Made by a program: the position numbers and the translations under genes. A DNA stretch of 64,000 nt, taken from an uncultured Bacilli bacterium (GTDB taxonomy: Bacteria > Bacillota_I > Bacilli_A > RF39 > UBA660). The DNA is taken from positions 236,152 through 300,151 of the forward strand of contig CAKOXC010000001.1 in NCBI GenBank assembly GCA_934129945.1. The letters are read 5' to 3'. This document shows positions 8,112 through 46,483 of the stretch, in pieces; positions within the stretch are counted from its first letter, which is position 1, and each line of letters opens with the position of its first letter. A model generated the notes under the pieces. That model did no database searches and was not told the DNA's origin. It saw only the letters and a program-made list of their open reading frames with translations.

Positions 8112-8885
8112 GTGGATATCAAAAAAGGAGATTATGTTTCAAGAAAAAGTTATAATAATGACATAATTTTTAAAGTTATAAACATTAAGAATGACGTCTA
8201 TTATTTAAAAGGCGCCGATGTTAGATTATATGCTGATAGTTTTTTAGAAGATTTGATTAAAGAAGAGATTAAAGAAAAAAAAGAAGAAATTTCCACAGAA
8301 TTACAAGATAATAATTCAGATAGAGGAGATTTTTTTTATTTGCCAGCTAAAATATTACATATAGATGGAGATAGTGAGTATTTAGATAGATGTCTAAAAT
8401 ACTATAAAAATTTAAACGTCTATGCTATTGGAAAAAAAATAAGAGAAGATAAAATTTATGAAGAAATTTATGATTTATTAGAAGAATATAAGCCTGATAT
8501 TGTTATAATTACAGGACACGATGCATTTTATAAAAAGAAAAAGGATACTACTGATATAAGGAATTATAAAAATTCATTAAATTTTGTTAATGCAGTTAAA
8601 ATGGCAAGAAAATATGAAAAATCTCATGATAAATTAGTTATAATAGCAGGGGCTTGTCAAAGTGATTATGAAGAATTAATAAAAGCGGGAGCCAATTTTG
8701 CTTCAAGTCCTAAAAGAATAAATATTCATGCCTTAGATCCAGCAATAATTGCATCATCACTTGCTTTAACCGAGCGAAATAAAGAAATTGATCTTTTAGA
8801 ATTATTAGAAAAAACAAAATATGGAAAAGATGGTATTGGTGGCCTTAAAAGTAATGGATTAATGTTTGTTGGATATCCGAGATAA
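8112..8885 (+). CDS. yabG: sporulation-specific protease YabG (peptidase U57)
   Basis: Follows ksgA and precedes veg as in Bacillus; similarity to YabG family (ITGHDAFYKKK... region); GTG start. Confidence 0.75.
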   Translation: MDIKKGDYVSRKSYNNDIIFKVINIKNDVYYLKGADVRLYADSFLEDLIKEEIKEKKEEISTELQDNNSDRGDFFYLPAKILHIDGDSEYLDRCLKYYKNLNVYAIGKKIREDKIYEEIYDLLEEYKPDIVIITGHDAFYKKKKDTTDIRNYKNSLNFVNAVKMARKYEKSHDKLVIIAGACQSDYEELIKAGANFASSPKRINIHALDPAIIASSLALTERNKEIDLLELLEKTKYGKDGIGGLKSNGLMFVGYPR

Positions 8886-8897
8886 GAAAGGAAAATT

Positions 8898-9110
8898 ATG
8901 AATATTGATGATGTGAAAACTCAAATCAAAAATAATTTATATAGTAATATAGAAATAAAAGTATATGGTATGAGAAATAAAAACTCTACTTATGTTGGAT
9001 ATATTTCTAATGTTTATCCGGCAATATTTACAGTAAGAATTAATGGTGTTGATAAAAGTTTTAATTATGTTGACGTCTTAACCGGAGAAGTTAAAATAAA
9101 ATATTATTAA
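8898..9110 (+). CDS. veg: Veg protein
   Basis: About 70 aa, YPAIFTV...V motif resembling Veg; conserved position after yabG. Confidence 0.7.
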   Translation: MNIDDVKTQIKNNLYSNIEIKVYGMRNKNSTYVGYISNVYPAIFTVRINGVDKSFNYVDVLTGEVKIKYY

Positions 9111-9179
9111 TTACTTGCAAAAATTTACACATATGATAAAATAATATTAAGTTAGAATAACTTTAGGAGGAGTGGTGTT

Positions 9180-9446
9180 ATGGAAATTACATCAGTAAAT
9201 GTACACAAAATTGAAAAAGAAGGAAAAAGAATTAAAGGTTTAGCTACAGTTGTTATCGATAATTCATTTGCAATTCATGATATTAGAATAATTGAAGGTG
9301 ATAATGGCTTATTTATAGCAATGCCAAGTAGAAAAACTCCAACTGGAGATTATAGAGATATTGCTCATCCAATTAATCCAGACGTTAGAAAAATGTTTGA
9401 AGATGCAATTTTTGAAGAATATAACAAAGAAGATGCAGAAAATTAA
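9180..9446 (+). CDS. spoVG: septation/sporulation regulator SpoVG
   Basis: MEITSVNVHKI...HDIRIIEGDNGLFIAMPSRKTPTGDYRDIAHPIN is a near-canonical SpoVG sequence. Confidence 0.95.
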   Translation: MEITSVNVHKIEKEGKRIKGLATVVIDNSFAIHDIRIIEGDNGLFIAMPSRKTPTGDYRDIAHPINPDVRKMFEDAIFEEYNKEDAEN

Positions 9447-9492
9447 ACTCATATTTATGAGTTTTTTTAATACAATTTACTAGGGTGATAAA

Positions 9493-9777
9493 ATGCAAAA
9501 TGATAATGTATTAATTGGTAACCATGAAGTAAAAATGACTGATAGAAAAACTATTTATTTGACGGGTATAAAAAAAATAGTAAGTTTTGATAATGAAGAA
9601 TTTTTAATGGAAAGTAACATGGGAGTAATTCTACTTAAAGGTGAAAGTTTAGAACTAAATAAATTAGATACTTCCGATGGAAATGTTAAAATTAAAGGAA
9701 AAATAAATAGTTTATCTTATGTTGATGGAAAAACTAAAAATAAAGATGAAGGAATATTTACTAAGTTATTTAAATAA
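9493..9777 (+). CDS. yabP: sporulation protein YabP
   Basis: 94 aa; YabP-like LTGIKKIVSFD motif; followed by a YabQ-like membrane protein and divIC. Confidence 0.8.
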   Translation: MQNDNVLIGNHEVKMTDRKTIYLTGIKKIVSFDNEEFLMESNMGVILLKGESLELNKLDTSDGNVKIKGKINSLSYVDGKTKNKDEGIFTKLFK

Positions 9778-10079
9778 TGGATAATAAATTACAAATAATA
9801 ACTTTTATATTTTCTTTTATTTATGGCTTTTCTTTCTTTTACTTAGAAGAATTAAATTATCTAATAAATAAAAAAAATAAATGTTTTATTAAATATTTAA
9901 ATAATACATTATTTATTTTAAATATGGTACTTATTTATGTTATTATAAATTATAAAATTAATAACGGTTATTTTCATATTTATTTTTTAATAACAATAGT
10001 ACTAGGTTACTTTCTTGCAAATTATACACAAAATAATGTAAAGAATTTAATTAATAAGTACAAAAAGAAAAATAAGTGA
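9777..10079 (+). CDS. yabQ: spore cortex membrane protein YabQ
   Basis: 100-aa polytopic hydrophobic protein overlapping yabP stop (ATGA); conserved yabP-yabQ-divIC order. Confidence 0.7.
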   Translation: MDNKLQIITFIFSFIYGFSFFYLEELNYLINKKNKCFIKYLNNTLFILNMVLIYVIINYKINNGYFHIYFLITIVLGYFLANYTQNNVKNLINKYKKKNK

Positions 10080-10095
10080 TATAATTGTCTAAAGA

Positions 10096-10401
10096 ATGGA
10101 TGATTATATGAAAGGTAAAATAACAAAAAAAGTAAAAAGAAGATTATTTTTTCAAACAGTATTTTTATTTGTTTTAGTTTTTGCATTAATTTTCTCTGTA
10201 TTTAATGATTGGTCAAAAATATTACAAAATAAAAGAAAAATAAATTCACTAAATAGTGAATATACTTCACTTTTAGAAAAAGAAGAATCATTAAATTCAG
10301 AAGTAACAAAATTACAAGATCCAGATTATGTTGCAAGATATGCTAGAGAAAAGTATATGTATTCGTTACCTGATGAAGTAATTATTCGTATACCAGAATA
10401 A
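10096..10401 (+). CDS. divIC: septum formation initiator DivIC/FtsB family
   Basis: Single TM then coiled coil and conserved C-terminal DPDYVARYAREKYMYS motif. Confidence 0.85.
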   Translation: MDDYMKGKITKKVKRRLFFQTVFLFVLVFALIFSVFNDWSKILQNKRKINSLNSEYTSLLEKEESLNSEVTKLQDPDYVARYAREKYMYSLPDEVIIRIPE

Positions 10402-16858: not shown

Positions 16859-17773
16859 ATGAAAAATAAACTATTATTGATTGTAGTAGTAGTTTTAACA
16901 ATGGTTTTACTTATAGAGATAAAAACACCAAAAAAAGAAATTCAAAATAATAAAAATAACAATAATCAAGAAGAAATTAAAGTTAAAAATATAGCAACTG
17001 GTGCTATAGAGACAAAAGATTTAGAAAATTATGTAATGGGAGTGGTAGCTGCAGAAATGCCTGCCTCTTTTTCTATTGAAGCATTAAAAGCTCAAGCAAT
17101 AGCATCAAGATCTTATGCATACTATAAAATGAAGCAAAATAATGGTAATTATGATATTATTGCAGATGTTTCAAATCAAGCTTATATAAATGATGATGAA
17201 ATGCATGAAAAGTGGCAAGAAGATTATGATATTTATTATAAAAAAATAAAAGAAGCTGTTGATGGTACTAAAAATGAAGTAATGACTTATGATGGTCAAG
17301 TTATTGAAGCATTTTATTTTGCTATGAGTAATGGGTATACAGAAGATGTAGTTTCAGTTTTTGGCGAAAGTTTACCATATTTAAAAAGTGTAGAATCAAA
17401 GTGGGATAACAACAGTTTAAGTAATTATGAGGTAAATACACAGTTATCAACAGAAGAATTTTTAAAAAAATTAAATTTAAACAATAATATCATAGTTATC
17501 AACAATCAAATTTATGATGAAACAGGTAGAACAAAGGAAATAACCATAAATTCCACAACTTTTAAAGGTACAGAATTTAGAAAATTGTTAAATTTAAGGT
17601 CAACTGATTTTAAAATTGAAGTAGATAATAATATAGTTAATATAACAACTAAAGGATATGGTCACGGAGTTGGTATGAGTCAATATGGAGCAAATGGAAT
17701 GGCAAAAGATGGCTTTGATTGTTATACCATTTTAAAATATTATTATAAAGATATTGAATTTCAAAAATTATAG
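16859..17773 (+). CDS. spoIID: stage II sporulation protein D (lytic transglycosylase/amidase enhancer)
   Basis: Signal-anchor; SpoIID family signature ...YGHGVGMSQYGANGMA... Confidence 0.9.
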   Translation: MKNKLLLIVVVVLTMVLLIEIKTPKKEIQNNKNNNNQEEIKVKNIATGAIETKDLENYVMGVVAAEMPASFSIEALKAQAIASRSYAYYKMKQNNGNYDIIADVSNQAYINDDEMHEKWQEDYDIYYKKIKEAVDGTKNEVMTYDGQVIEAFYFAMSNGYTEDVVSVFGESLPYLKSVESKWDNNSLSNYEVNTQLSTEEFLKKLNLNNNIIVINNQIYDETGRTKEITINSTTFKGTEFRKLLNLRSTDFKIEVDNNIVNITTKGYGHGVGMSQYGANGMAKDGFDCYTILKYYYKDIEFQKL

Positions 17774-17821
17774 TATATATTTCCAATAATTGGTCAAACT
17801 TATTAGTAGGAAGGTGAGACC

Positions 17822-18454
17822 ATGAAAAAGAGAAAATTAAAAGGATTTGTATTACCAACAGCATATGTTATCGGAGTAACATTTTTATTTTTAGGCATCA
17901 TGTATGTTGGAAGTAAAGGAGTAGATAGTACTTTAGGAAATTATAAATTTGTAACAGGGCTTTTTAATGAAAATTTAACTTCTGTTGTTAGCACTGAAGA
18001 ACCAAAAGTTTCGAAGCCGTTTAATAGTGATAAGGTAGAAATAAGTAAATATTTCTATAATAAAGATGCTGATGATACTAATAAAGAAGCTTCTATAATT
18101 TACTATGAAAATACTTACATGCAAAACACTGGAGTTTTATATTCTTCTGATGAACAATTTGATGTTTTAGCAACATTACCAGGAACAGTAACTAATATTA
18201 AAGATGATAATATACTTGGAAAAGTTGTGTATGTTGAATATAATACAAAATTAACAGTAGTTTATTACTCTTTACAAAGTACTGATTTAAAAATAGGTGA
18301 TCAAATAGATCAAAATACAGTTATTGGTAAAAGTGGTTCAAATAAATTAGAAAACCAAAAGAAATATAATTTATTAATTGAAGTATATAAAGATGGTAAC
18401 TTAATTAATCCTCTAGATTTTTATGAAATGAATGTAAATGAATTAAATAATTAA
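17822..18454 (+). CDS. SpoIIQ-like protein with degenerate LytM (M23) domain
   Basis: N-terminal TM; C-terminal M23-like fold lacking His/Asp zinc ligands; directly downstream of spoIID as in Clostridia. Confidence 0.55.
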   Translation: MKKRKLKGFVLPTAYVIGVTFLFLGIMYVGSKGVDSTLGNYKFVTGLFNENLTSVVSTEEPKVSKPFNSDKVEISKYFYNKDADDTNKEASIIYYENTYMQNTGVLYSSDEQFDVLATLPGTVTNIKDDNILGKVVYVEYNTKLTVVYYSLQSTDLKIGDQIDQNTVIGKSGSNKLENQKKYNLLIEVYKDGNLINPLDFYEMNVNELNN

Positions 18455-18456
18455 TA

Positions 18457-19023
18457 ATGAAAAAACAAGTTGATTGTATATTTTACTTAGTTGATAGTTA
18501 CTTATATTTATATAATTTAAAAAAAGAAGAAATAAAAAAGTATAAGTTCTCAAATTATATATATTATGGAAGAATAGTAAAAGTAAGTCAGTTTTTAAAA
18601 AAATTAAATGAAATAATTAAACAAGAAAAGATTTCAAAACTATTTACTGGTCTAAAAGCAATAGTTATTTATGAACCGTATTTACAATATAATGATAAAA
18701 AAATAATTATTGATGCTTTTGACCAGTGTGGTTTTAAAGATTTAAAATTAATAAGTACAAAACAAATTTTATCTAAAAATAAAACTTTTATAGAAATAAA
18801 TGAAAAATATTTAATTTTATACAATGAAAATAAGTACTTTCTATTTAATGTAAATAAATATTTTAGTATTGAAAATATTATTAATAAAATATTAAAAAGT
18901 ATTTCTAAAAATATATATTTAATTGGAATAAATGAAAGAATTGCAGAGTTAGTAGAGATGAACAAAAAACTATTTTACTTCGAAAATAGCAGTATATTTT
19001 ATTTAAAAAATGCAAAAAAATAA
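18457..19023 (+). CDS. hypothetical protein (188 aa)
   Basis: ORF with AT-rich codon usage consistent with neighbours; no motif recognised. Confidence 0.4.
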   Translation: MKKQVDCIFYLVDSYLYLYNLKKEEIKKYKFSNYIYYGRIVKVSQFLKKLNEIIKQEKISKLFTGLKAIVIYEPYLQYNDKKIIIDAFDQCGFKDLKLISTKQILSKNKTFIEINEKYLILYNENKYFLFNVNKYFSIENIINKILKSISKNIYLIGINERIAELVEMNKKLFYFENSSIFYLKNAKK

Positions 19024-19104
19024 TTGGCAAAAATTGTCAATTTTTTTATGGTGTGATATAATTATAGGTATGGTTAGCAAGCTGCAAATACAGGATGGTG
19101 AGTT

Positions 19105-19816
19105 TATGATTAAATTTGTTGTGGTTGAGGATGATAAATCTCAACAGGAGAAAGTTAAAGGAGTAATTGATAAAGTAAAATTTAAAACTAATGAAGAAAC
19201 GGAAACAGTATTCTTCTCTAAGTACACAAAAACATTACAAAATATTATAAAAGATGATAGTATTCATAAGATATTTATAATGGATATAGAACTTGAAAAT
19301 AATACAAGTGGTATTCAAATAGCAAAATATATTAGAGAAAATGATTGGGATAGTGAAATAATATTTACTACTAGTCATGATAAAATGTTTGAAACAGTTT
19401 ATAGGAATATTTACCAAGTATTTGATTTTATTGAAAAATATCATGATATGTCAAAAAGACTTGAAGAAGATATAAATATTATTTTAAGAAAAAACTTTGA
19501 TAACAAAATGTTAACTTATAGTAATAGATTATTTGATTTAAAAGTATACTACCGTTCTATTTTATATATTTATAGAGAAAAAGATGAAAGAAAATTAGTT
19601 ATTGTAACTGATACAAATATTTTCAAAATTGGTTTGACAATTCCAGAAATGCTAGAGTTGTTAGATGAACGTTTTAAACAATGTCATAGATCTTGTATTG
19701 TTAATGTTGATAGAGTTCAAAAATTCAATTGGAATAATAATTCTTTTTTATTAGATAACAAAGAAGAAATACCAATGCTATCTAAAAAATTTAAGAAAGA
19801 GGTGTTGGGTGAGTGA
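19105..19816 (+). CDS. AgrA-like response regulator (receiver + LytTR DNA-binding domain)
   Basis: Receiver Asp in FIMDIELEN; C-terminal LytTR region RSILYIYREKDERKLVIVTDTNIF...HRSCIVNVDRV; ATG 19105 after RBS and promoter ttgtca..tgtgatataat. Confidence 0.85.
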
Positions 19817-19818
19817 CT

Positions 19819-21099
19819 ATGGAAAGGGTAATAGAGTTTATTGCTATCTTTTTGACGTATTTTTCTTATTTAATAATGTATAAAGTACTAACGATGGAAA
19901 AAATGAAAATGAATTTAAAAAATATGATTATAATGATTGTATTCTCTTACATATCTCTTAAATTTAATGAAATAAATAATGTCTTTATAAACCTAGTTAT
20001 TTCATTAGTTATTATATTTCTTTCAATTAAATTATTTTATAAATCAGATCTTAAAAAAACGATTTTTTATACAATTTTATTAATTTTTATTACATTGATA
20101 AGTGATTCAATAACTTCTTCTTTTATTAAATATAATCATATCAGAAGTTTTGACTCATTTAGGTATAATGTTATTTTAAGATCTTTACTATCTTTTCCTG
20201 TTGTATGTATTTCTTTAATGATATGCTTAATTCCGTTTATTAAAAAAATTTCAAAGGTATTTTATAATAAATATTTTTTGAAATTAAAAGTTAATAAAGA
20301 AAGTTTATTGTGGATTACAATTTTAATAAGTACTATATTAATTATTTTTGGGTTAAATGGATATAATAGAACAAATAAAGCCAAATTTGTAATGTCTTCT
20401 TTATATATTTTTATATTTATTGTTTTATTAATTATAGCATTATATTTACTATATAAAGATTATCAAACTAAAATATTAAATAAAAACATAGTTAATGAAA
20501 ACAAATACATGAAAGATATAGCTAGACAAGAAAAGGAATTTAAACATAATTTAATTAATAATCTTTTAGGTATTAAAACAGTTGCAAGTAAAAAAGTAAA
20601 TCAATTAATTGATGAATTAATATCTGAGTATAAAACTGATTATAAAAATATTTTAAATATAAATGATTTACCAGACGGTGTTTTATCTATTATTTATCGA
20701 AAGGCATATGAAGAAAATATTGATAATTTAAATTTAGCTGTTGACAACAAAATTAAAAAAGATTTAATTGATATGTTATCACCTAAAAATTATAATAAGT
20801 TTTGTACATCAATCGGTATCTTATTTGATAATGCATTAGATGCAGTTAAGTCTTGTAAAGAAAAAATAATTGAAATTAATTTTTTAGAAGATGAAGAATA
20901 TATTTATTATATTCAAAAGAATTCTTTTAATAATGTTATTGATCTTGAACGAACTGGTACTAAAGAATATACGACTAAAAAAAGTGGTCATGGTATAGGT
21001 TTAAATTATGTAAAAAATTTAAAAAATATTGAAACTAAAAATGAAGTAATTAATAATATGTTTATTACAAAATTGAAAGTTAAAAAAATAAAAATGTAG
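19819..21099 (+). CDS. AgrC-like membrane sensor histidine kinase (HPK10 family)
   Basis: About 6-7 TM helices over first 200 aa, H-box EKEFKHNLINNLLGI, GHKL ATPase G-box KKSGHGIGLNYV; start overlaps regulator stop. Confidence 0.85.
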   Translation: MERVIEFIAIFLTYFSYLIMYKVLTMEKMKMNLKNMIIMIVFSYISLKFNEINNVFINLVISLVIIFLSIKLFYKSDLKKTIFYTILLIFITLISDSITSSFIKYNHIRSFDSFRYNVILRSLLSFPVVCISLMICLIPFIKKISKVFYNKYFLKLKVNKESLLWITILISTILIIFGLNGYNRTNKAKFVMSSLYIFIFIVLLIIALYLLYKDYQTKILNKNIVNENKYMKDIARQEKEFKHNLINNLLGIKTVASKKVNQLIDELISEYKTDYKNILNINDLPDGVLSIIYRKAYEENIDNLNLAVDNKIKKDLIDMLSPKNYNKFCTSIGILFDNALDAVKSCKEKIIEINFLEDEEYIYYIQKNSFNNVIDLERTGTKEYTTKKSGHGIGLNYVKNLKNIETKNEVINNMFITKLKVKKIKM

Positions 21100-21118
21100 G
21101 GATTTCCTACATTTTTAT
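21096..21118. terminator. bidirectional hairpin terminator between the convergent kinase gene and agrD
   Basis: TGTAGGgatttCCTACA flanked by T-runs on + and A-runs on the opposite sense. Confidence 0.6.
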
Positions 21119-21234
21119 TTTAACAATTCTCCTGGACAATCAGGTTCATCAAAAACAAGAACTATGCACCCAGTTGAAGCAGAAGCAGCAAGTATTGAAC
21201 CAATTGAAGCCATCAGACCGAAAAATAATTTCAT
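21115..21234 (-). CDS. AgrD-like autoinducing peptide precursor (39 aa; not in ORF track)
   Basis: Minus-strand ORF MKLFFGLMASIGSILAASASTGCIVLVFDEPDCPGELLK with RBS aaatggagg; amphipathic leader, central Cys, acidic tail DEP..P.EL as in staphylococcal AgrD (DEVEVPKEL); immediately downstream of agrB. Confidence 0.75.
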   Translation of the reverse strand: MKLFFGLMASIGSILAASASTGCIVLVFDEPDCPGELLK

Positions 21235-21265
21235 TTGTACCTCCATTTCTAGTCTGTTTTATTAA

Positions 21266-21871
21266 CTAATTCAAACCTTTTTTATAATTCTTATAATTAT
21301 TGAATGGTATACCAAACAATTTATAAGTTAATGGGTTTATAGAAATAATACTCATAATATAAGAAAAGAATATACAATTATTAATTAGAGAATTATTGGA
21401 TAAGAAAGGAATAAACATAAGCACTGTAGAAATAGCTACAGTTAATAATTTATCTAATACTCTTTTCTTCTTATTTATAAGTGGCTTCTTTGGAGTATCA
21501 GCTGGAGCCCATATAATGAAACAGACTAGAGCAATAATACTCATTATTAATATATAAAATTTATTAATAACATAATATTTTATTAATAAAGGAAAAGCTC
21601 CGTAGGTCAAGATTGAAGCAACCCAACAGTGTGAGCTTTTCTTTGCATGAATACCATGTGAAAATAGTCGTAAAAGTAAATAGAAAAGCATTAAAATTAT
21701 TGTTTCTTTAAATGTTTTTAGAAAAAGTGATATAAACAATATACCTAATGTTTTTGTAATTATCGTGTACAGTACTTCTAAACCATATTTGATTTTGATT
21801 TTTTCAGTATCAGTTAACTGATAATACTTAGAAACATAATTTAAATTCTTTTCAGCGAATACTTCTCTCAT
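21266..21871 (-). CDS. AgrB-family membrane peptidase/cyclase
   Basis: 201 aa polytopic; conserved catalytic His/Cys region SHGIHAKKSSHCWVASI typical of AgrB. Confidence 0.85.
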   Translation of the reverse strand: MREVFAEKNLNYVSKYYQLTDTEKIKIKYGLEVLYTIITKTLGILFISLFLKTFKETIILMLFYLLLRLFSHGIHAKKSSHCWVASILTYGAFPLLIKYYVINKFYILIMSIIALVCFIIWAPADTPKKPLINKKKRVLDKLLTVAISTVLMFIPFLSNNSLINNCIFFSYIMSIISINPLTYKLFGIPFNNYKNYKKGLN

Positions 21872-26949: not shown

Positions 26950-27003
26950 AAAAGGACGAACATGTGGATCTGGACGTAAATATAAGCAATGCTGTGGAAA
27001 GTA
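26950..27003 (+). pseudogene. third SEC-C tail remnant (…GRTCGSGRKYKQCCGK*)
   Basis: 18-codon fragment nearly identical to native secA terminus; no start. Confidence 0.65.
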
Positions 27004-27070
27004 GCGTAAAATAAGGTGTGAACGAAAAATAATGTGTTGACACCTTTTAAATTTAAAAAAGATGTTTTTA

Positions 27071-27684
27071 ATGTAAGAAAATAATATAGTAATATATCAA
27101 CTTGAAGATGAAACAGTATGGTTATCACAACAACAAATGGCTGACTTATATGATACGACTAAAAAAATATAAGTTTGTATATTAAAAATATTTTTGATGA
27201 AGAAGAATTAGATGAAAATAGCACGTGTGCAAAAATTGTACATATGGGTAATGATGGTAACCAAACTTACAATACAAAATATTATAATCTTGATATGATC
27301 ATTTCAATAGGTTTTAGAGTTAACTCTAAAAAAGCAATTAAATTTAGAACTTGGGCAAATAAAATAATTAAAGATTATATGGTTCAAGGTTTTGCATTAA
27401 ATGATGAAAGATTTTTAAAAGCAAAAAAATCTGATCAAGAGTATTTTAAAAGATTACTTGAAAGAAGTATAACTATGTACATGGATGATTGGAAAAATGA
27501 AGTAGAAAATGCCCTAAAAGTTTTCCATTATGAAGTTTTAGAAGGAAAAGGAAAAATCTCACATAAACAAGCAACCCGAAAAGCGGAAAATGAATATGAA
27601 AAATATAAAATTATACAGGATAAGAATTATGTGTCAGATTTTGATAGATTATTAAGTGAAACGAAGCAAATTGAAAATAAATAA
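27071..27684 (+). pseudogene. RhuM-family virulence protein, disrupted (nonsense at codon 2 plus homopolymer frameshift)
   Basis: ATG-TAA then in-frame RhuM N-terminus IVIYQLEDETVWLSQQQMADLY; frame changes inside a 7-A run at 27161-27167; remaining body is in the 27175 frame and matches RhuM (YNLDMIISIGFRVNSKKAIKFRTWA). Confidence 0.7.
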
Positions 27685-27947
27685 ATTGCACATTTGTGAG
27701 GACAAAAAAATCTTGAAATTTGTCATTCAAGAATAAAAAAGATAACAAAGATGACTTATGGGAGTTAGTTAATCATAGATTGTTCTATGATTTTTTTAAT
27801 ATAGAACAATAACTCAAAGTCATCTACTAAATTATCTATGTATTTTGTTATATATTCATTATCCATTCTAATAATATTTTCATAAATTAGAATAGAAGAA
27901 TTTAAATATGAAAATTAATTCTAAAAAAAATTAAAGGAGGATGAATA

Positions 27948-29126
27948 ATGAATAATTGTAATGATTATGAACGAATAAAAAAAAGAATTGAACAAGAGGG
28001 AAAAAAATATCAATATTGCTATGTGCAAGGACCAACAGGACCTCAAGGAGTTCAGGGTATTCAAGGTGTAACTGGCCCAACTGGAGCTATTGGCCCTAAA
28101 GGTGATAAAGGAGATAGAGGAACACCAGGACCAGTTAGTATCGATGTTGGTGATACAGAAACAGTGGAATCTTTTGAAGAAGCTAAAGTAGAAAATGTTG
28201 GGACAAAAGAAGATGTTATTTTGAATTTTAAAATTCCAAGAGGTAAACAAGGTATAGATGGAAATACAGGCCCACAAGGAATTCCAGGACCAAAGGGAGA
28301 AAAAGGTGAGCAAGGACCACAAGGAATAAAAGGTGAAAAAGGTGACCCGGGACCATCTACTATTCAAATTGGAAATATAGAAACAATAGGTGCTACTGAA
28401 GAAGCTGAAGTTATAAATGTTGGAACACCTGTGGATGTAGTTTTAGATTTTAAAATTCCAAAAGGTGATAAAGGAGATAAAGGAGATAAAGGAGATATTG
28501 GCCCAAGAGGCTTACCAGGAGAAATAGGAAGAACAGAACATATTGCTGTAGATGAGACTACAACTTTAGAGCCTGGAGAACCAGCAGCTGTTATGGATAC
28601 ATTTGAAAATTGGGTACATCATCTAGCCTTTTTAATTCCAAAAGGTGAAAAAGGAGAAATTGGAGAAAGAGGACCCCAAGGTCCAGCAGGTCCTCCAGGA
28701 ACAGAATTTGTGTCATCTTATGGAATTAGATATTCAATGACTGATACACAACTTAATTTACCACAAGCAACTGATACGATTATTCCATTACCTGAAAAAG
28801 GAATATCATTTTTAACAGAATATCCAGATGATAATTCTATTAAAATAAAAGAAAAAGGAATATATCTTGTATCGTATTTAATATGTGGAGCGACGAACGA
28901 AGAATGTTCTATAACGTTGTCTGTTAGAGCAAATGACATATTACAACCAGCTACAAATGTGACTAGTGAGTTTAGTGCTCAAATAATTAATAGTATAAGT
29001 GGAACTACTATTGTATCATTACAACCAAATGATCTAATAACATTAAATGTTAAACCATCTAAAACTGTTGATATAAAGTTTAATGGAAATACTAATGCAA
29101 TGTTAAATGTTACTAAAATACATTAA
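27948..29126 (+). CDS. collagen-like triple-helix repeat protein with C-terminal BclA/C1q-like globular domain
   Basis: Three G-X-Y blocks (GPQGVQGIQGVTGPTGAIGPKGDKGDRGTPGP etc.) separated by a repeated non-collagen module ending ..NFKIPRG / ..DFKIPKG / ..FLIPKG; about 130-aa C-terminal beta-rich domain. Confidence 0.75.
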   Translation: MNNCNDYERIKKRIEQEGKKYQYCYVQGPTGPQGVQGIQGVTGPTGAIGPKGDKGDRGTPGPVSIDVGDTETVESFEEAKVENVGTKEDVILNFKIPRGKQGIDGNTGPQGIPGPKGEKGEQGPQGIKGEKGDPGPSTIQIGNIETIGATEEAEVINVGTPVDVVLDFKIPKGDKGDKGDKGDIGPRGLPGEIGRTEHIAVDETTTLEPGEPAAVMDTFENWVHHLAFLIPKGEKGEIGERGPQGPAGPPGTEFVSSYGIRYSMTDTQLNLPQATDTIIPLPEKGISFLTEYPDDNSIKIKEKGIYLVSYLICGATNEECSITLSVRANDILQPATNVTSEFSAQIINSISGTTIVSLQPNDLITLNVKPSKTVDIKFNGNTNAMLNVTKIH

Positions 29127-29189
29127 AAAAATTCTATTCTTTTTAATTAGTTATCATTTAAATTTCAACATAAATTATTGTAAAGGAAG

Positions 29190-31055
29190 GTGATAATTAT
29201 TCAAATAATTGATAAGAGTACTATCGTAGTTACAACTAGTGATGAATTAAAACAGGCACTAAGTGAAGATAATGGTTATGAATATGTATATTTAGGAAAC
29301 AATATTACTGCTACAAGTGGAATTATTATAAATAGTAACAAGGGTAAAATTATTATTGATGGAACATATAATAATACAAAATATACTTATACAAATAATT
29401 TAAGTTCAGAAGAAACAGTTATAAAAGTAAGTACAACTAATAAAAAAATTATATTAAAAAATATGAATATAGTATCTTCGCATGGTTATGGTGTCATTTA
29501 TGTACCATCTCATCCAAACTACTCTAATGTAGTTGTAGAATATAATAATATAAATTTTAGTGGAATCGAACTTTCACAAAACTATTATGGAACCACTAAA
29601 ATTATAGATTCTATTTTAGAAATAAAAGATACTAACAATGTTTCTGCACAAAGAGCCTGTAATTCCAATAGAATCATAATAGATGGAAATACAACAATTA
29701 CAAGTGATTCAGAAACAAATACAATTTTCTTTTTTAATGATGTTATACCATCGTTAGTTAAAATTATGCCAAATAGCAGGGTAAATATAACCACTAATAG
29801 AGAATTTATGAATGGAACTAATAGGATGGATTTAATAGTAGGCCATGGTGCAGAATTTCTTTTAACAACAGGAAATGGATTTGCAATTACTACTACTCAT
29901 GGAGCTAGAAATGTTTTAATAGAAGAAATGGCTGAATTTACATTTATTGAAAAAGACCATAAAAGAGTCCCAATGTGGAATGTATTTGGTGATTTTAAAG
30001 TTTCAGAAGGGGCGAGCTTATCAGTAATAAATACATATATGACAACACCGACTGATAACTATAATATTTATTTTAAAGGAACTAATCAAAAGTTTATACT
30101 AGATAATCCAAAAAATGTTAATATTTATACTAAAAATGCTAATGTGGTTTATACAAATAATCCTGTTGATTTTGAATTTAATTTTAGTAGAATTAATATG
30201 TGGGTATATGCACTTGACTATAGTTCTGCTTGCAATATTGATGACACACCAGCTTTTTATTGGTATAAAGAAAATACACCAGCTAAAATAACAGGAGTGT
30301 TAAATAAAGATAATACTACAGTTACATCACATAATTTTACAGACGCTGAGTTAAGTTCAATATCAGATATAAATAATTTTTCGTTCCAAGATAAAAAAAT
30401 ATTATCTATTGGAATGCACAAGATAAATATTCACCCAATTACAAATTCTCAAACGGCCATTTCAGGTCATACTACACCATATGCAAATGTTAAAATAGAA
30501 TATAATAATAAAAGCTTATCAACAGTCGCAGATGAAACTGGCTTGTTTGAAGTAAGTATTGATTCTACTATTTTAGATAATACAAGAGTTAAAATAACCT
30601 CTTGTTTAAATAGTTGTTTTAGTGAAAGAAAAGTAACAACTCCTTTTATGGGCGAGTTGACACTTTTAAAAGTAACAGTAAATATTCCGTTTAGTATGAT
30701 ACCTTCCTCAACTAATCCAGTTATATTATCTAAAAAAAATGAAACAGTGGTAACTGTAATTGATAGTAGGGTAAATAGTACTAAATGGAAACTATATTTA
30801 AATTATATAAATCCAATGATAGAGGCAACTGGTAAAGTGTTAATAGATTCATTATTTTTTAAAAAATTTAATAATGATGAAATTCTTTTAAAAACAAATA
30901 AAAAAATAATATATGAATCAAATGATAATGGTGGAAATGTAACTGTTAGCAATGTTACGTTTTCAGTCGATAAAGGATTGTTATTAAAGCCTAGCAGAGA
31001 TTTGCTTGAAAATGAAGATTATTCTACATTAATAGTTTGGAGTGTTGAGGCATAA
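29190..31055 (+). CDS. large Asn/Thr-rich hypothetical protein (621 aa); start codon uncertain
   Basis: Long ORF immediately after the collagen-like gene; no in-frame ATG near the RBS aaggaagg (candidates GTG 29190, ATA 29193, ATT 29196). Confidence 0.5.
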   Translation: MIIIQIIDKSTIVVTTSDELKQALSEDNGYEYVYLGNNITATSGIIINSNKGKIIIDGTYNNTKYTYTNNLSSEETVIKVSTTNKKIILKNMNIVSSHGYGVIYVPSHPNYSNVVVEYNNINFSGIELSQNYYGTTKIIDSILEIKDTNNVSAQRACNSNRIIIDGNTTITSDSETNTIFFFNDVIPSLVKIMPNSRVNITTNREFMNGTNRMDLIVGHGAEFLLTTGNGFAITTTHGARNVLIEEMAEFTFIEKDHKRVPMWNVFGDFKVSEGASLSVINTYMTTPTDNYNIYFKGTNQKFILDNPKNVNIYTKNANVVYTNNPVDFEFNFSRINMWVYALDYSSACNIDDTPAFYWYKENTPAKITGVLNKDNTTVTSHNFTDAELSSISDINNFSFQDKKILSIGMHKINIHPITNSQTAISGHTTPYANVKIEYNNKSLSTVADETGLFEVSIDSTILDNTRVKITSCLNSCFSERKVTTPFMGELTLLKVTVNIPFSMIPSSTNPVILSKKNETVVTVIDSRVNSTKWKLYLNYINPMIEATGKVLIDSLFFKKFNNDEILLKTNKKIIYESNDNGGNVTVSNVTFSVDKGLLLKPSRDLLENEDYSTLIVWSVEA

Positions 31056-31108
31056 TTCCTTTACAAAAGAAATTTCGATTCATAAAATATATTGTAATGA
31101 GGTGAATT

Positions 31109-31468
31109 ATGACAAGCGATTATATTTATATTAAACTTTGTAGTAGTGAAAGTATGTGTCTTAGTAATTTAAAAATAAAACTAGAAGATAAATGTAATGA
31201 GATTGTTTTTGATGGAATAACAGATAATTTTGGAAAAGTAAAAATACCAGTATGTAGTAATGAGGTATATAAATTATTCGTATATTCTAATTTATCGATT
31301 TTAAAAGTACCTTTAATTGCAAGAAAAAATGAGATTTATTGTATAAATATTAGCAGTAATAAAAGAAAAAAACATCTTGTTACAGTTTTGTTAAAAGATA
31401 AATATTATCCAAATATAAAAATAGAAAGAGGTAAGATGATACTATGGCAAGACATACAATTTCAATAA
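31109..31468 (+). CDS. hypothetical protein (119 aa)
   Basis: ORF with RBS; Cys-containing; no motif recognised. Confidence 0.4.
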   Translation: MTSDYIYIKLCSSESMCLSNLKIKLEDKCNEIVFDGITDNFGKVKIPVCSNEVYKLFVYSNLSILKVPLIARKNEIYCINISSNKRKKHLVTVLLKDKYYPNIKIERGKMILWQDIQFQ

Positions 31469-31989
31469 CAAATGGTAAAGGAAGTATTGAACTTGTTACA
31501 GGTACATATAGTGCCCAAGCTGTTGCTGGTGGATATGATGCATCAACACTAGATCCAAAAAGTGTAACAATTGTAGACGGAACACCAACGTATGCTTTTA
31601 CTATAAGTGCAAATGGAACTTTAACTTTGCATGTTACAGATACAGGTGATCCTAATACTGGAGTACAAATTGTTGGGGCTAAATTTATAAGAACAGATAG
31701 TACAGGAACGATAGTTGGAAATGAAATAACAACTAATGAAGATGGTAATGCGGTCTTTAATAATGTCCCATTTGCTGAAACAGGAAGTACAGCAATATAT
31801 TATAAACAAATATCAAGTGATGGTGGACACACATTTGATGATACTGTTAAATCAATTGTTATGACTGAATCTTCTGAAACAGTACAAATAACAAATCCAA
31901 CAGCACCAGAAAGAAACTTCACGTTGATGGATGCAAGTTACCCTAATATACCGGTTATAGATGGCCAAATAATACTTGAAGATAATTAA
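31444..31989 (+). CDS. hypothetical Thr/Gly-rich beta-strand protein (181 aa)
   Basis: ORF overlapping upstream gene; composition suggests an Ig-like or surface domain. Confidence 0.45.
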   Translation: MARHTISITNGKGSIELVTGTYSAQAVAGGYDASTLDPKSVTIVDGTPTYAFTISANGTLTLHVTDTGDPNTGVQIVGAKFIRTDSTGTIVGNEITTNEDGNAVFNNVPFAETGSTAIYYKQISSDGGHTFDDTVKSIVMTESSETVQITNPTAPERNFTLMDASYPNIPVIDGQIILEDN

Positions 31990-32069
31990 TAAAGAAGCAA
32001 TAAATTATAAATTTGCTTCTTTTTATATTTATTATAAAAAAATATTGATAGTAAAAGCGAAAAATTATA

Positions 32070-32318
32070 ATGGAAAGGGAAAAAATAAACAAAACGGAAA
32101 GTAATTCAAATCTTATTATTAAATTAATTAAAATTTTAGGAATCACTTTGGGAACACTTATTTTTATATTAGGTTGTATAATAGGCATATATTTTTACAC
32201 TACTAATTACTATGAAAGTGAACTTGTTTCCACTGGAGAAGAAAGAATTTGTTATTACAAAGGTAAAATCAGTAATTATATTGAAGATAATGGTGGAGTA
32301 TGTTTAGATGAAAAGTAA
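32070..32318 (+). CDS. small membrane protein (82 aa)
   Basis: One strong TM helix; weak evidence. Confidence 0.3.
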   Translation: MEREKINKTESNSNLIIKLIKILGITLGTLIFILGCIIGIYFYTTNYYESELVSTGEERICYYKGKISNYIEDNGGVCLDEK

Positions 32319-32440
32319 TAGTAAATGCTGTAATATTTAGTTATTTAAATTTTAAATTTGAAATTAATGAAAGTCGTAAATCTTCAATAATTATTGTATA
32401 TTCTTTTCCATTTTAGTATAATTATTTCAGGAGGATTAAT

Positions 32441-33016
32441 ATGAAAAAGAGAGTTTTATTTATTGTTTTATGTGGTATGTTTTTAGTTACTCTATCTGGA
32501 TGTTCTAAGACTGAAACAAAAAAAGAAGATAGTAGCAAAACTAAGGAAACTACAAAAAAAGAAGACAATAAAAAGTCTACAAAAGTTATCGAGTATATAA
32601 GCAAACTTGATAACAATAGTACACTTGAAGACGTTAACAAACTAATTGGTTTTGATGGAGTTGTTGATAGTGACAATGACAAAAAATATGTTTGGGATGT
32701 AACAGAAACTTCTAGCTTAACAGCAACATTTTCAAATAAAGGTTATACAAGTATTGAAATTGATATTGAAGATGAACTATTAAAAAATGATAAAGTTGAT
32801 TTTTCAAAATATGAAGAAATAAGTTCAGCTTTAAAAAATGGTGATACTGTAACTTATGATGATTTTAAAGAAAAAGTTGGTGGAGTAGATGGTACTCCTG
32901 TTACAAAAAGCTATATAAGTACATCTTATAAGTGGGTAAATAAAAAAGGTGGATATTTAAAAGCATCATTCAACAATAAAACTAAAAAATGTACTTTTGT
33001 ATCTGGAAGAATTTAA
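32441..33016 (+). CDS. lipoprotein (paralog of 56534-57136)
   Basis: Signal peptide with lipobox LSGC; C-terminal region alignable with ICE-borne ORF 56534 (KNDKVDFSK...GGV.GT...W...G...A.FN...KCT). Confidence 0.7.
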   Translation: MKKRVLFIVLCGMFLVTLSGCSKTETKKEDSSKTKETTKKEDNKKSTKVIEYISKLDNNSTLEDVNKLIGFDGVVDSDNDKKYVWDVTETSSLTATFSNKGYTSIEIDIEDELLKNDKVDFSKYEEISSALKNGDTVTYDDFKEKVGGVDGTPVTKSYISTSYKWVNKKGGYLKASFNNKTKKCTFVSGRI

Positions 33017-44699: not shown

Positions 44700-44810
44700 A
44701 TGAATTATAATTTAATAATTAACAAAATAATTACTTTGATAATTTTTTTAAAATGTTATTTATCGATAACATTTTTTTTCTATATTCATAAACTAATATA
44801 GGTGATTATA

Positions 44811-46007
44811 ATGAGCAAGAAAATAGTCATAGATCCTGGTCATGGTGGAAGTGATCCAGGTACTTCAGCTAATGGAATAACTGAAAAAGACTACACTTTA
44901 AAAATAAGTCAATATATGAAAAAAAGATTGGATGATTTAGGAATTGAGAATTCTATTACTAGAACTGGTGATGAAACACTAGAGCCAAGTGTGAGACCAA
45001 AAAGAGTGCAAGATTTTTATGGTACTGGTAGTGATATTATAGTTGTTTCTAATCACATAAATGCAGGAGGTGCCGATGGTGCTGAAATAATTTATGCATT
45101 AAGAAACAATGATACATTACCAAGTAAAATAGCTAAAGAATTAGAAGCTGCAGGTCAAAATGTAAGAAAGTATTATCAAAGAAGGTTACCTAGTAATCCA
45201 GCAAAAGATTATTATTATATATTAAGAGATACACCTAATAATCAATCAATAATAGTCGAATATGGATTTGTAGATTCACCAGAAGATGACGTTAATCAAA
45301 TAAAAAATAACTATGAAGAATTAACTGAAGCAGTCGTAAAAGCATTAGCTGACTATGTTGGTGTTACTTACAGTCCTCCAGTTGGATCTAATACTTATGT
45401 AGTAAAAAAAGGTGATACTTTGTGGAGCATTGCTAGAAAAAATAATATTTCTGTAGACGAGTTAAAAAAATTAAATAATTTAACATCTAATTCGTTAAGT
45501 TTAAATCAAGTATTAAAGTTACCAACAAGTAATAATGACTTATCAACAACTTATACAGTAAAATCAGGAGATACATTATATAAAATAGCAAATCAATTTG
45601 GTCTTAGTGTAAATGAATTGAAAAGTATTAACAATTTATCAACAAATAATTTGTCAATCGGACAAGTTTTAAAAGTAAAAAAAGATACTAGTAATGATAA
45701 TACTACAAATGATAAATCATCGACATATACGGTTAAAAGTGGAGATACATTGTACTCAATTAGTAGAAAATTAAATGTGTCAGTCGATGAAATAAAAAGA
45801 GCAAATAATCTTACAAACAATTTATTAACAGTTGGACAAACATTACAAATACCAACAGATACAACTAAAGTTTATACAGTGAAATCAGGAGATACTCTAT
45901 ATACAATTGCAAGAAATAATAATACGACTGTTTCTGATATAATAGAATTAAACAACTTATCAACAAGTAATTTAACTATAGGTCAAAAACTGTTATTACC
46001 AAGTTAA
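44811..46007 (+). CDS. N-acetylmuramoyl-L-alanine amidase (Amidase_3) with four C-terminal LysM repeats
   Basis: IVIDPGHGGSDPG catalytic N-terminus; four YTVKSGDTLY.IA...NLS.N.L.IGQ.L LysM units. Confidence 0.9.
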   Translation: MSKKIVIDPGHGGSDPGTSANGITEKDYTLKISQYMKKRLDDLGIENSITRTGDETLEPSVRPKRVQDFYGTGSDIIVVSNHINAGGADGAEIIYALRNNDTLPSKIAKELEAAGQNVRKYYQRRLPSNPAKDYYYILRDTPNNQSIIVEYGFVDSPEDDVNQIKNNYEELTEAVVKALADYVGVTYSPPVGSNTYVVKKGDTLWSIARKNNISVDELKKLNNLTSNSLSLNQVLKLPTSNNDLSTTYTVKSGDTLYKIANQFGLSVNELKSINNLSTNNLSIGQVLKVKKDTSNDNTTNDKSSTYTVKSGDTLYSISRKLNVSVDEIKRANNLTNNLLTVGQTLQIPTDTTKVYTVKSGDTLYTIARNNNTTVSDIIELNNLSTSNLTIGQKLLLPS

Positions 46008-46060: not shown

Positions 46061-46483
46061 TTAATGAAGTTCTTTGCATATTCCTGGATCTGGTATATAA
46101 AAACAATGATTTTTGTATCTTCCAGCTAAATCTTGGTTATACCATTTTTGCTTACAAGTTGAACCTCTACCTGGGGCATAAAACCATAACGAGTTAGTAG
46201 CTGGATGATAATATTCACCATTAAGTACTCTCTTAGCTAATGACTTTTCTAATGAAGTTGCTCTGCCTTCAAATAAAGAACTTTGAGTTCCAGTAAATTG
46301 ATTTTTCTGATAAATTGCATCATGAATAGATCTAACATTTTTAAATGTTAAACAATCTACTAAGGCACGATTAACAACAACATTACCAACCATTAACATT
46401 CCAAGATTTCCTTCGCCAAGTGCTTCAGCACGCATAAGTCTAGCTAAATGATCTAATTCTGTAGTAGAATAATTAATAAACAT
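46061..46483 (-). CDS. cwlJ: spore cortex-lytic hydrolase CwlJ/SleB catalytic-domain protein
   Basis: 140 aa; Hydrolase_2 motifs ARLMRAEA.GEG and GNVVVNR. Confidence 0.85.
   Translation of the reverse strand: MFINYSTTELDHLARLMRAEALGEGNLGMLMVGNVVVNRALVDCLTFKNVRSIHDAIYQKNQFTGTQSSLFEGRATSLEKSLAKRVLNGEYYHPATNSLWFYAPGRGSTCKQKWYNQDLAGRYKNHCFYIPDPGICKELH

Follow-up and report, generated by a model that had tools for sequence, protein, structure and literature searches.

We describe here a four-gene cassette from the window, a stretch of 64,000 nucleotides (nt) from an uncultured human-gut bacterium of RF39, a prevalent, uncultured, genome-reduced order of the human and animal gut (GenBank assembly GCA_934129945.1, contig CAKOXC010000001.1, positions 236,152 to 300,151 of the forward strand). 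Its genes, at 27948-31989 of the window, encode a BclA-like collagen protein of 392 amino acids (aa), a 621-aa adhesin and two small proteins of 119 and 181 aa. Our preferred reading, to which we give a probability of roughly 55%, is that the four genes are a late mother-cell operon for a spore-surface complex made of a fibre and an adhesin. We read them so because the host is predicted to form spores, the proteins have no export signals, sigmaK-type promoters are conserved before the lead gene and probably before the small-protein pair, the collagen protein carries a BclA_C domain and the context is not that of a phage. A spore-surface role had already been put forward for this DNA from inspection of its sequence (the original prediction). 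It has become plausible with the sporulation genes of the host, the missing signal peptides, the conserved sigmaK-type motif and the absence of adjacent phage genes; the exosporium leader that targets BclA is missing.

Organisation and conservation of the cassette

The window has a GC content of about 25%, and that of the cassette is native to the genome. The features that define the cassette are the following.

27948-29126, plus strand: gene for the collagen-like BclA_C protein, 392 aa (open reading frame and translation; Pfam Collagen and BclA_C)
29190-31055, plus strand: gene for the 621-aa signal-peptide-less "large WxL"-type adhesin (open reading frame, AlphaFold2 model, homologues)
31109-31468, plus strand: gene for the 119-aa Lys/Cys-rich small protein (open reading frame; 25-nt overlap with the 181-aa gene)
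31444-31989, plus strand: gene for the 181-aa Thr/Gly-rich prealbumin-like (SpaA/CarboxypepD_reg-like) protein (open reading frame; Pfam matches below cut-off)
31992-32030, plus strand: intrinsic terminator 3' of the 181-aa gene (9-bp stem, 12-nt loop, U-rich tract)

A strong Shine-Dalgarno (SD) sequence, AAAGGAGG at 27933-27940, precedes the collagen gene. The 621-aa open reading frame (ORF) had been described as having no canonical start, and its start is indeed awkward, though a GTG is present. This GTG, the sole canonical start of the ORF, coincides in part with the SD, so that translation may in fact begin at an ATT a few codons later. An in-frame stop 9 nt before the ORF start rules out a longer N-terminus. 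At the other end, the terminator folds with -11 kcal/mol (z = -2.9) and escaped a simple scan because its loop is longer than 8 nt. Since this hairpin and its U tract follow the fourth gene, we take the four genes as one terminated unit. No Rfam family was matched within 27000-32500.

To collect related loci, the 621-aa protein was used as a query against species-representative genomes; this returned 70 loci, among them genomes entered as "uncultured Bacilli/Tenericutes/Mollicutes bacterium", Acholeplasma sp. CAG:878, Clostridium sp. CAG:433, CAG:417 and CAG:302; CAG-433, CAG-878 and CAG-302 are RF39 taxa (PMC8035907, PMC7676259). Gene order is unchanged, with all four genes present, in about 65 of these 70, and most of the remainder are cut by a contig end. 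When the ORFs of these loci were clustered, the families of the cassette had 73 to 101 members each, and the next-largest family, from the flanks, had 12. Genes secA and hpf, which stand upstream in the window, were upstream of the cassette in just a handful of loci; among the genes of other flanks are Abi_2, a Tn4451-like serine recombinase with TnpV, and transporters. It had been suggested that the cluster may be horizontally variable, as part of a putative island near secA. This has to be reversed, as the cassette is conserved lineage-wide and it is the flanks that vary. Phage structural genes close to the cluster had been named as the finding that would point instead to a prophage tail fibre; none was found next to the four genes, either in the window itself or at about 75 related loci.

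Promoters, export signals and sporulation genes

Two promoters are predicted, one before the collagen gene and one in the spacer between the 621-aa and 119-aa genes.

27863-27889, plus strand: promoter P1, sigmaK-type; -35 CC (AC in most relatives), 16-nt spacer, -10 CATAAATTA at 27881-27889
31063-31089, plus strand: promoter P2, AC-N16-CATAAAATA, exact; also sigma70-like, TTTACA-17-TAAAAT

Upstream of the collagen gene, the most conserved columns are AC and, 16 nt downstream, CATAAATTA, with a spacer that diverges; across species these elements are placed 30 to 70 nt before the ATG. The full P1 pattern, AC-N16/17-CATAnnnTA, occurs in 35, and its -10 element taken alone in 46, of the 60 distinct orthologous regions compared. 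For P2, 34 of 54 distinct orthologous spacers had the full pattern (AC-N16/17-CATAAAATA). As a background, 13 of 824 regions upstream of other genes in the same loci (1.6%) carry the AC-N16/17-CATAnnnTA pattern. The argument for both promoters is conservation between species, not counts within the window. P1 was not listed in a scan for sigma70 promoters. In Clostridioides difficile, sigmaE and sigmaK promoters share their -10 element and differ at -35 (ATA versus AC), and bclA1-3 are sigmaK-controlled (PMC3789822); promoter logos for both factors are available from Bacillus subtilis (PMC517825). The pattern predicted for P1 and P2 matches the sigmaK type. It is also found, as AC-N17-CATACAATA, at -40 of the first of two signal-peptide-less homologues of the 621-aa protein in an organism of 52% GC (locus L083). 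An inverted repeat in the leader downstream of P1 was considered as a structure and rejected (-3.2 kcal/mol, z = -0.5).

Elsewhere in the window, an exact AC-N16-CATAAACTA occurs at 44769-44795, directly upstream of a gene with Amidase_3 and LysM domains (about 44811-46007) and very near its start codon. This gene may encode a sigmaK-dependent amidase for mother-cell lysis.

None of the four cassette proteins has a signal peptide or a hydrophobic N-terminus, and no LPXTG is visible in the four translations. For the 621-aa protein, absence of a signal peptide holds across the whole clade (about 50 cluster representatives). No such peptide would be needed for proteins made in the mother-cell cytoplasm, as we propose.

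Sporulation genes are present around the cassette.

3612-4097, 8112-8885, about 9180-10400, 16859-18454 (window coordinates) and 46061-46483 (minus strand): spore-former gene set

They comprise a SpoVT-like gene (MazE_antitoxin/AbrB fold), yabG (Peptidase_U57), genes for Veg, SpoVG, YabP, DivIC, SpoIID and an M23 peptidase, and a SleB/CwlJ-type gene (Hydrolase_2). This set gives direct support, at the level of sequence, for sporulation genes having been kept in this RF39 genome. RF39 has been predicted to form spores, and essentially none of the model coat proteins is present in the order or in its relatives (PMC10868615). Unlike the hosts of BclA, the lineage has no recognised exosporium proteins.

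The collagen protein is an atypical BclA-like protein

The 392-aa protein is made of a 27-aa N-terminus, four G-X-Y blocks totalling 40 triplets, three modules inserted between the blocks and a 139-aa C-terminal domain, as follows.

27948-28028, plus strand: N-terminal 27 aa, Cys-x19-Cys around a charged helix-like stretch (MNNCNDYERIKKRIEQEGKKYQYCYVQ)
28029-28136, plus strand: G-X-Y block 1, 12 triplets (5-14 among homologues)
28137-28241, plus strand: inter-collagen module 1, 35 aa, aa 64-98 (phrog_21765, E = 2.6e-5)
28242-28358, plus strand: G-X-Y block 2, 13 triplets (13 in nearly all homologues)
28359-28463, plus strand: inter-collagen module 2, 35 aa, aa 138-172 (phrog_21765, E = 2.9e-6)
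28464-28535, plus strand: G-X-Y block 3, 8 triplets (6-8 in homologues)
28536-28643, plus strand: inter-collagen module 3, 36 aa, aa 197-232, divergent copy
28644-28706, plus strand: G-X-Y block 4, 7 triplets
28707-29123, plus strand: C-terminal BclA_C (C1q/TNF-like) knob domain, 139 aa (Pfam PF18573)

Three collagen blocks had been counted in the original prediction, one too few, whereas the thrice-repeated non-collagen module that it had noticed between them was recovered: modules 1 and 2 align in BLASTP with E = 8e-12 and 49% identity, and modules 1 and 3 with E = 0.011. The Pfam Collagen match of the protein has E = 6e-19. Its globular C-terminal domain, which had been likened to C1q and BclA, holds up as such, since it reaches 41.4 bits with BclA_C (cut-off 38) when scanned alone, next to weak C1q and TNF matches; in the scan of the full-length protein the BclA_C score is 37.6 bits. 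All of the 120 best homologues (75-94% identity) share the architecture, and PF18573 is precomputed for all 120. Among homologues, module length is constant and collagen block length is variable, and two variants have gained a fourth module through duplication of a module-plus-collagen unit. A Cys near the start, and a Cys or Cys-Cys directly before the first G-X-Y, are kept in orthologues and paralogues, and the peptide that they flank is a possible trimerisation or docking peptide. Searches of PDB sequences with the collagen protein gave collagen or chance matches only.

The protein resembles BclA and BclA1-3 (Bacillus anthracis/cereus and C. difficile) in having a G-X-Y region followed by a trimerising BclA_C knob, in the absence of a signal peptide, in the sigmaK-type promoter motif and in collagen blocks of polymorphic length. 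It differs from them in three ways. It has no exosporium leader; its collagen is made of four short, charged blocks split by three beta-modules, and not of one long, Thr-rich glycosylated run; and its gene is predicted to be co-transcribed with those of an adhesin and two small proteins. To call this architecture typical of exosporium glycoproteins, as had been done, therefore went too far. We expect the protein to work as BclA does, as an atypical member that carries two of the BclA features examined, the collagen and BclA_C, and lacks a third, the leader.

The inter-collagen module is found in phage tail fibres

A profile of 23 sequences gave the consensus xTIxVGxVxTLxPGxxAxVxNxGTxxxAxLxFxIPxG for the module, which suggests three short strands per chain. 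The module has no Pfam match, and its profile found nothing in the PDB. Modules 1 and 2 match the phage family phrog_21765 (E = 3e-6 to 3e-5), and the collagen part of the protein is matched by many PHROG tail-fibre families; the C-terminal domain alone has no PHROG match. A tblastn search with the whole 392-aa protein against 50,697 phage records returned no match at 1e-5, under a low-complexity filter that masks collagen, and the module-only query alone succeeded in finding phage genes. The design is exactly that of the RF39 protein in "putative tail fiber protein 1" of Eggerthella phage LE2-3 (MW679026), where the module, in at least 12 copies, takes turns with G-X-Y blocks. Two tail-region genes also have the module, namely crAss001 gp24, with two tandem copies and an annotation as "putative C-type lectin", and Clostridium perfringens phage CPS1 gp20, with one copy and annotated as hypothetical. 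Further copies were found in the tail fiber of Stenotrophomonas phage DLP_6 and in a Pseudomonas phage "collagen-like protein". The module is nevertheless rare in phages, with about 12 of the 50,697 records at BLAST sensitivity.

It had been remarked that such a module is not a described feature of BclA. This is correct for BclA itself, and a precedent exists in phage tail fibres such as that of LE2-3, whose module of about 35 aa is the same as that of the RF39 protein. The alternating design of collagen and module is thus known from tail-fibre sequences; we found for it no Pfam family, solved structure or description. Phage proteins with the module have other N- and C-terminal domains and are sited among phage structural genes. 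The RF39 collagen gene, on the other hand, is chromosomal and lineage-wide, ends in BclA_C and is preceded by sporulation-type promoters. A putatively trimeric fibre module shared by phage tail fibres and bacterial collagen-like proteins could be of use in the design of short, stable collagen segments.

The 621-aa protein is related to large WxL adhesins

Three domains were recognised in the 621-aa protein.

29190-30389, plus strand: right-handed beta-solenoid (pectate-lyase-like adhesive domain), about aa 1-400 (AlphaFold2 model)
30399-30638, plus strand: Ig-like (Big_6-like) domain, about aa 404-483 (Pfam match below cut-off and strands of the model)
30639-31052, plus strand: C-terminal WxL-like beta-sandwich, aa 484-621 (W-K-L at aa 533-535, end W-S-V-E-A)

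The only Pfam match of the protein is Big_6 (E = 1.6e-5, 25.5 bits for a cut-off of 27.6), and the window's copy has no Pfam match for Pectate_lyase_5. An exhaustive search of 1.84 billion cluster representatives yielded 409 relatives at E <= 1e-3, which fall into two groups. In the first, some 50 full-length proteins (600-650 aa), the conserved domain stands at the very N-terminus, as in the 621-aa protein. The second is more distant, and its proteins are longer (670-930 aa), with a low-complexity linker and a signal peptide in addition. When 10 distant relatives were scanned, 7 had Pectate_lyase_5 ("putative pectate lyase-like adhesive domain") at the N-terminus, 6 of them at or above cut-off, and some also matched Big_6 and some a C-terminal WxL. 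Homology between the 621-aa protein and these signal-peptide-bearing large WxL proteins covers the full length, and one of the latter is encoded inside a textbook WxL cluster, with a small WxL protein, a WxL-interacting protein (WxLIP; DUF916/DUF3324) and a large WxL protein. Among signal-peptide-less relatives, the Pfam WxL family (PF13731) was matched by 12 of 20 aligned C-terminal domains (best E = 2.4e-7).

Structure prediction agrees with this domain order. A first AlphaFold2 (AF2) model, made from a shallow alignment (17 sequences, 84-99% identity), had a predicted local distance difference test score (pLDDT) of 47 and was discarded. The model made with 86 diverse relatives reached a pLDDT of 95.2 and a predicted template modelling score (pTM) of 0.92, and consists of the beta-solenoid, the Ig-like domain and the beta-sandwich. 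Its best PDB structure matches are the binding regions of Limosilactobacillus reuteri serine-rich repeat proteins (SRRP; 5NY0 and 5NXK), with E of about 1e-4, a template modelling (TM) score of 0.61 on the target and 14-15% sequence identity to the solenoid. The likeness to the SRRP is that of a right-handed beta-solenoid over the first 400 residues or so; the 621-aa sequence has none of their serine-rich repeats, LPXTG or signal peptide. A viral structure library gave weak tailspike-like matches only (TM <= 0.28), and a PDB sequence search with the protein gave chance matches.

Judged by its family as a whole, the 621-aa protein is a "large WxL" surface protein, from a branch that lacks signal peptides. 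The order of solenoid (Pectate_lyase_5), Big_6 and C-terminal WxL, the alignment over the full length and the company of small Ig-like proteins are as in the WxL clusters of Enterococcus, Lactobacillales and Listeria (PMC10599100). The RF39 cassette differs from these clusters in lacking signal peptides, a small WxL protein, a DUF916/DUF3324 match and a transmembrane anchor, in having a BclA-like collagen protein as partner, and in a promoter that is sigmaK-type and not vegetative. The protein had been presented as Asn/Thr-rich and bearing sequons, in the manner of a glycoprotein; this description gives way to that of a beta-solenoid adhesin with Ig and WxL-like domains. It has 18 N-x-S/T sequons, a number reached by 13.5% of shuffled sequences (14.0 +/- 3.2), and the idea of N-glycosylation was rejected, the count being explained by the Asn/Thr/Ser-rich composition.

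In the organism of 52% GC mentioned above (L083, 8071-11911), two signal-peptide-less 636-aa paralogues of the 621-aa protein stand in tandem, with no collagen gene adjacent within the available part of the contig.

The two small proteins share a C-terminal motif

The original prediction had called both small proteins Thr/Gly-rich, which is right for the 181-aa protein; by composition the 119-aa protein is Lys/Cys-rich (13.4% K, 4.2% C, 2.5% Thr, 2.5% Gly). It has no Pfam, PHROG or NCBIfam match. The 181-aa protein is free of Cys and, at 69-93% identity across loci, its gene is among the most conserved of the cassette, level with the 621-aa gene. In 18 members of its family SpaA (prealbumin-like fold) was found in 17 and CarboxypepD_reg in 10, all below cut-off, and a profile of the family gave chance matches to PDB sequences.

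Comparison of the two families by hhalign revealed a common motif of 23 residues at the C-terminus (E = 6.7e-6, probability 85%), outside of which no similarity between them is detectable.

31378-31465 and 31909-31977: shared motif at the C-termini of the 119-aa and 181-aa proteins

It reads LxTxxLxDKxYPNIKIExGKMIL in one family and RNFTLMDASFPNIPIxDGQIIL in the other, around a core L-x-D-x-x-[YF]-P-N-I-x-I-x-x-G-x-[MI]-I-L. For WxL clusters of the classical kind, insertion of a beta-hairpin from the Ig-like DUF916 domain into the WxL domain has been predicted (PMC10599100). The shared tail may have a comparable task, and we propose that through it both small proteins would dock to the WxL-like domain of the 621-aa protein.

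SpaA is also found elsewhere in the window, in an 832-aa protein (51679-54177) with a TED (thioester) domain and repeated SpaA/prealbumin-like domains, where the matches are strong, compared to weak ones in the 181-aa protein. It is apparently a conventional vegetative surface adhesin.

Interpretation of the cassette

If the cassette is a late mother-cell operon, its four proteins would be made in the mother-cell cytoplasm and deposited on the forespore, in the outermost layer of the endospore. The collagen-like protein would trimerise through its C-terminal BclA_C knob, as BclA does, and the three 35-aa beta-modules would serve as trimeric "staples" that register and stabilise the four collagen segments. 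On their own, these segments would be too short (7-13 triplets) and too poor in Pro and Thr to be stable. The outcome would be a segmented stalk of about 40-50 nm with a distal C1q-like head, and the Cys-flanked N-terminal peptide would hold the trimer together and/or dock it in the spore layer. The adhesin proper would be the 621-aa protein, with an SRRP-like solenoid that binds host or polysaccharide ligands, an Ig spacer, and a WxL-like domain that holds it in place. Expressed from their own promoter, the 119-aa and 181-aa Ig-like proteins would act like a WxL-interacting protein and anchor the WxL-like domain to the spore layer.

Several observations weigh against such an operon. Sporulation of RF39 is itself only predicted, and the order has no cultured member in these data. 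As for the promoters, P1 of the window has CC instead of AC at -35, and P2 also fits a sigma70 promoter (score 10/12). The sigmaK motif is AT-rich and, within the window alone, is not enriched (5 found for 4 expected); the region upstream of yabG, taken as an internal sigmaK control, had no convincing site. No NCBIfam match to the exosporium leader (TIGR03720, the ExsF(BxpB)-binding motif) was found at E <= 0.1. The name WxL-like, for the C-terminal domain of the 621-aa protein, is given on no more than homology at the level of the family, because the window's copy has no Pfam WxL match itself, and because hhalign of the domain with a genuine small WxL protein gave E = 7e-4 with a probability of just 26%. 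Moreover, WxL domains are peptidoglycan binders on vegetative cells, and their substrate is not exposed to the mother-cell cytoplasm. Finally, the roles of the module, of the N-terminal peptide and of the two small proteins are ones that we infer.

A more specific account would be that a WxL-type adhesion system has been redeployed to the endospore: signal peptides were lost, sigmaK promoters were gained, a BclA-like fibre containing a phage-tail-fibre module was added, and the small proteins became analogues of the WxL-interacting protein that dock by their shared C-terminal hairpin. We advance this scenario tentatively, and put it at a little under an even chance. As far as can be told, a signal-peptide-less branch of large WxL proteins with sporulation-type promoters and a BclA-like fibre partner is undescribed, and our literature search found no paper linking WxL domains to spores.

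Another kind of spore structure could be encoded here, an endospore appendage (ENA) of the L-ENA/F-ENA type known from Bacillus, in which the 181-aa and/or 119-aa proteins would polymerise into a shaft, the collagen protein would be a tip fibrillum or anchor, and the 621-aa protein a tip or basal adhesin. Collagen-like proteins without the exosporium leader are indeed part of such systems (L-BclA, F-BclA and F-Anchor): they sit on a spore structure by a short N-terminal docking motif, and in F-ENA they dock in this way on the fibre (PMC12357932). The RF39 collagen protein is likewise leader-less, with a conserved Cys-flanked N-terminus. A conserved promoter of their own would suit two proteins required as many subunits, conservation of the 181-aa gene fits too, and the shared C-terminal motif could be an element for strand donation. 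However, when the cassette proteins and 43 family members were scanned, no Pfam hit to the subunit domains DUF3992 or DUF4183 was obtained at E <= 0.1; the partners in RF39 are of the WxL and prealbumin types, and disulfide cross-links of the kind typical of S-ENA and L-ENA would not be possible for the 181-aa protein, which is free of Cys. We consider an appendage unlikely.

Also improbable, in our view, is a WxL-type adhesion complex of vegetative cells that would reach the surface without Sec signal peptides, whether through lysis of sister cells, a holin-like pathway or some further non-classical way out, and whose WxL-like domain would attach it to peptidoglycan. The full-length homology of the 621-aa protein to signal-peptide-bearing large WxL proteins of classical clusters speaks for it, as does the sigma70 reading of P2, and WxL domains, which bind peptidoglycan non-covalently, can attach from outside (PMC10599100). 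This has to be set against a lack of signal peptides that extends to all four proteins and to the clade of some 50 representatives, against the absence of small WxL and WxLIP partners from the cassette, against P1, which is not sigma70-like and fits sigmaK, and against the BclA_C domain of the partner, known from spore surfaces and phage fibres.

As for a prophage remnant or phage-derived tail-fibre or tailspike cassette, with a collagen-like fibre, a beta-helix spike and small assembly proteins for use by a phage, a tailocin or a gene-transfer particle whose genes are elsewhere, the module in tail fibres (LE2-3, DLP_6, phrog_21765) and in crAss001 gp24 and CPS1 gp20, the PHROG families matching the collagen part, the beta-solenoid, a fold typical of tailspikes, and the RhuM fragment upstream in the window, with a serine recombinase and TnpV beside the cassette in other loci, are all compatible with it, but it is made very unlikely by the absence of capsid, portal, terminase, tape-measure and baseplate genes beside the cassette in the window and the roughly 75 loci, by vertical conservation with native GC in about 65 of the 70 related species genomes, by the failure of the whole collagen protein to match any phage record at 1e-5, by the lack of a significant PHROG match for the 621-, 119- and 181-aa proteins (a marginal hit of the last, E = 0.017, excepted) and by a best structural match of the 621-aa protein that is a bacterial adhesin and not a tailspike.

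Under our preferred reading of a spore-surface operon, the cassette would supply the first concrete candidates for the RF39 spore surface and for the sticking of its spores to hosts or to one another. Such candidates bear on transmission between hosts, and could serve as antigens or handles to enrich spores from stool. It would also mean that adhesin machinery of the vegetative, WxL type may have been re-used for spores simply by dropping its export signal; if so, a redeployed system is possible in other Firmicutes that have the signal-peptide-less branch.

Variation at the cassette and neighbouring genes

Where the cassette varies locally, the variation is centred on the collagen gene and concerns block lengths, module number and occasional replacement. 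In three loci (L058, L060 and L062, about 8450-9920) the gene has given way to one for a long collagen protein of the classic G-P-T-rich kind, whose C-terminal domain is a different one. The 82-aa ORF that follows is a C-terminal remnant of the original BclA_C domain, and the replacement therefore took place by insertion at the collagen position. In another locus (L071, 7723-9885) genes for six helical proteins of small size (98-155 aa) occupy this position, and the gene for the 621-aa homologue follows directly. At least one of the six has a W-x-G motif (WXG100/ESAT-6-like). A 407-aa ORF between the collagen and 621-aa genes of L042 (8574-9797) was judged from its sequence to be a TnpB/OrfB-type transposase. 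In more distant loci, the cassette is kept at 51% identity of the 621-aa protein (L084/85: collagen, 619, 114 and 183 aa, and a second collagen gene) or is partly recognisable at 36% (L086).

Many RF39 loci have further BclA_C paralogues, some with modules and no collagen, and some beside a gene resembling GT2/TPR glycosyltransferases. In three cases a 365-aa GT2-like glycosyltransferase with TPR is encoded on the minus strand beside short BclA_C paralogues (L012, 12915-14012; L054, 6961-8058; L055, 6737-7828), in a manner that resembles the glycosyltransferases adjoining bclA genes elsewhere. It is preceded by AC-N17-CATAGAATA in L054 and L055, and this gene is among the few background hits of the promoter motif. 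The window's cassette contains no copy of the glycosyltransferase.

In five loci (L001-L004 and L038, 12466-14565 and downstream), a large serine recombinase (Resolvase/Recombinase/Zn_ribbon_recom) is found directly 3' of the cassette, followed by TnpV and by variable cargo (Eco57I-type methylase, PadR, AAA_15). A Tn4451-like element is suggested, whose cargo differs from one otherwise identical context to the next. Three loci with an RF39-type cassette come from metagenome-assembled genomes titled Paratractidigestivibacter, Muribaculaceae and Bacteroidaceae (L054, L061 and L066); since they look RF39-like and AT-rich, these contigs are probably mis-binned.

In the window, the neighbours of the cassette are secA, an NTPase gene, the RhuM fragment, lipoprotein genes, TetR and MMPL. 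The RhuM-family ORF (27175-27684, 169 aa, TTG start) lies directly upstream of the cassette, and at the identical place in identical metagenome contigs. Its match to the Pfam profile (252 positions) is split in two, with the better stretch covering positions 1-83, so the ORF may be truncated. Further upstream, just before the CSD, hpf and secA genes, an agr-like quorum-sensing set was found at 19010-21871. It comprises a LytTR response regulator, a HATPase_c_5 histidine kinase, a 39-aa ORF and, on the opposite strand, AgrB; the 39-aa ORF may encode the precursor of an autoinducing peptide.

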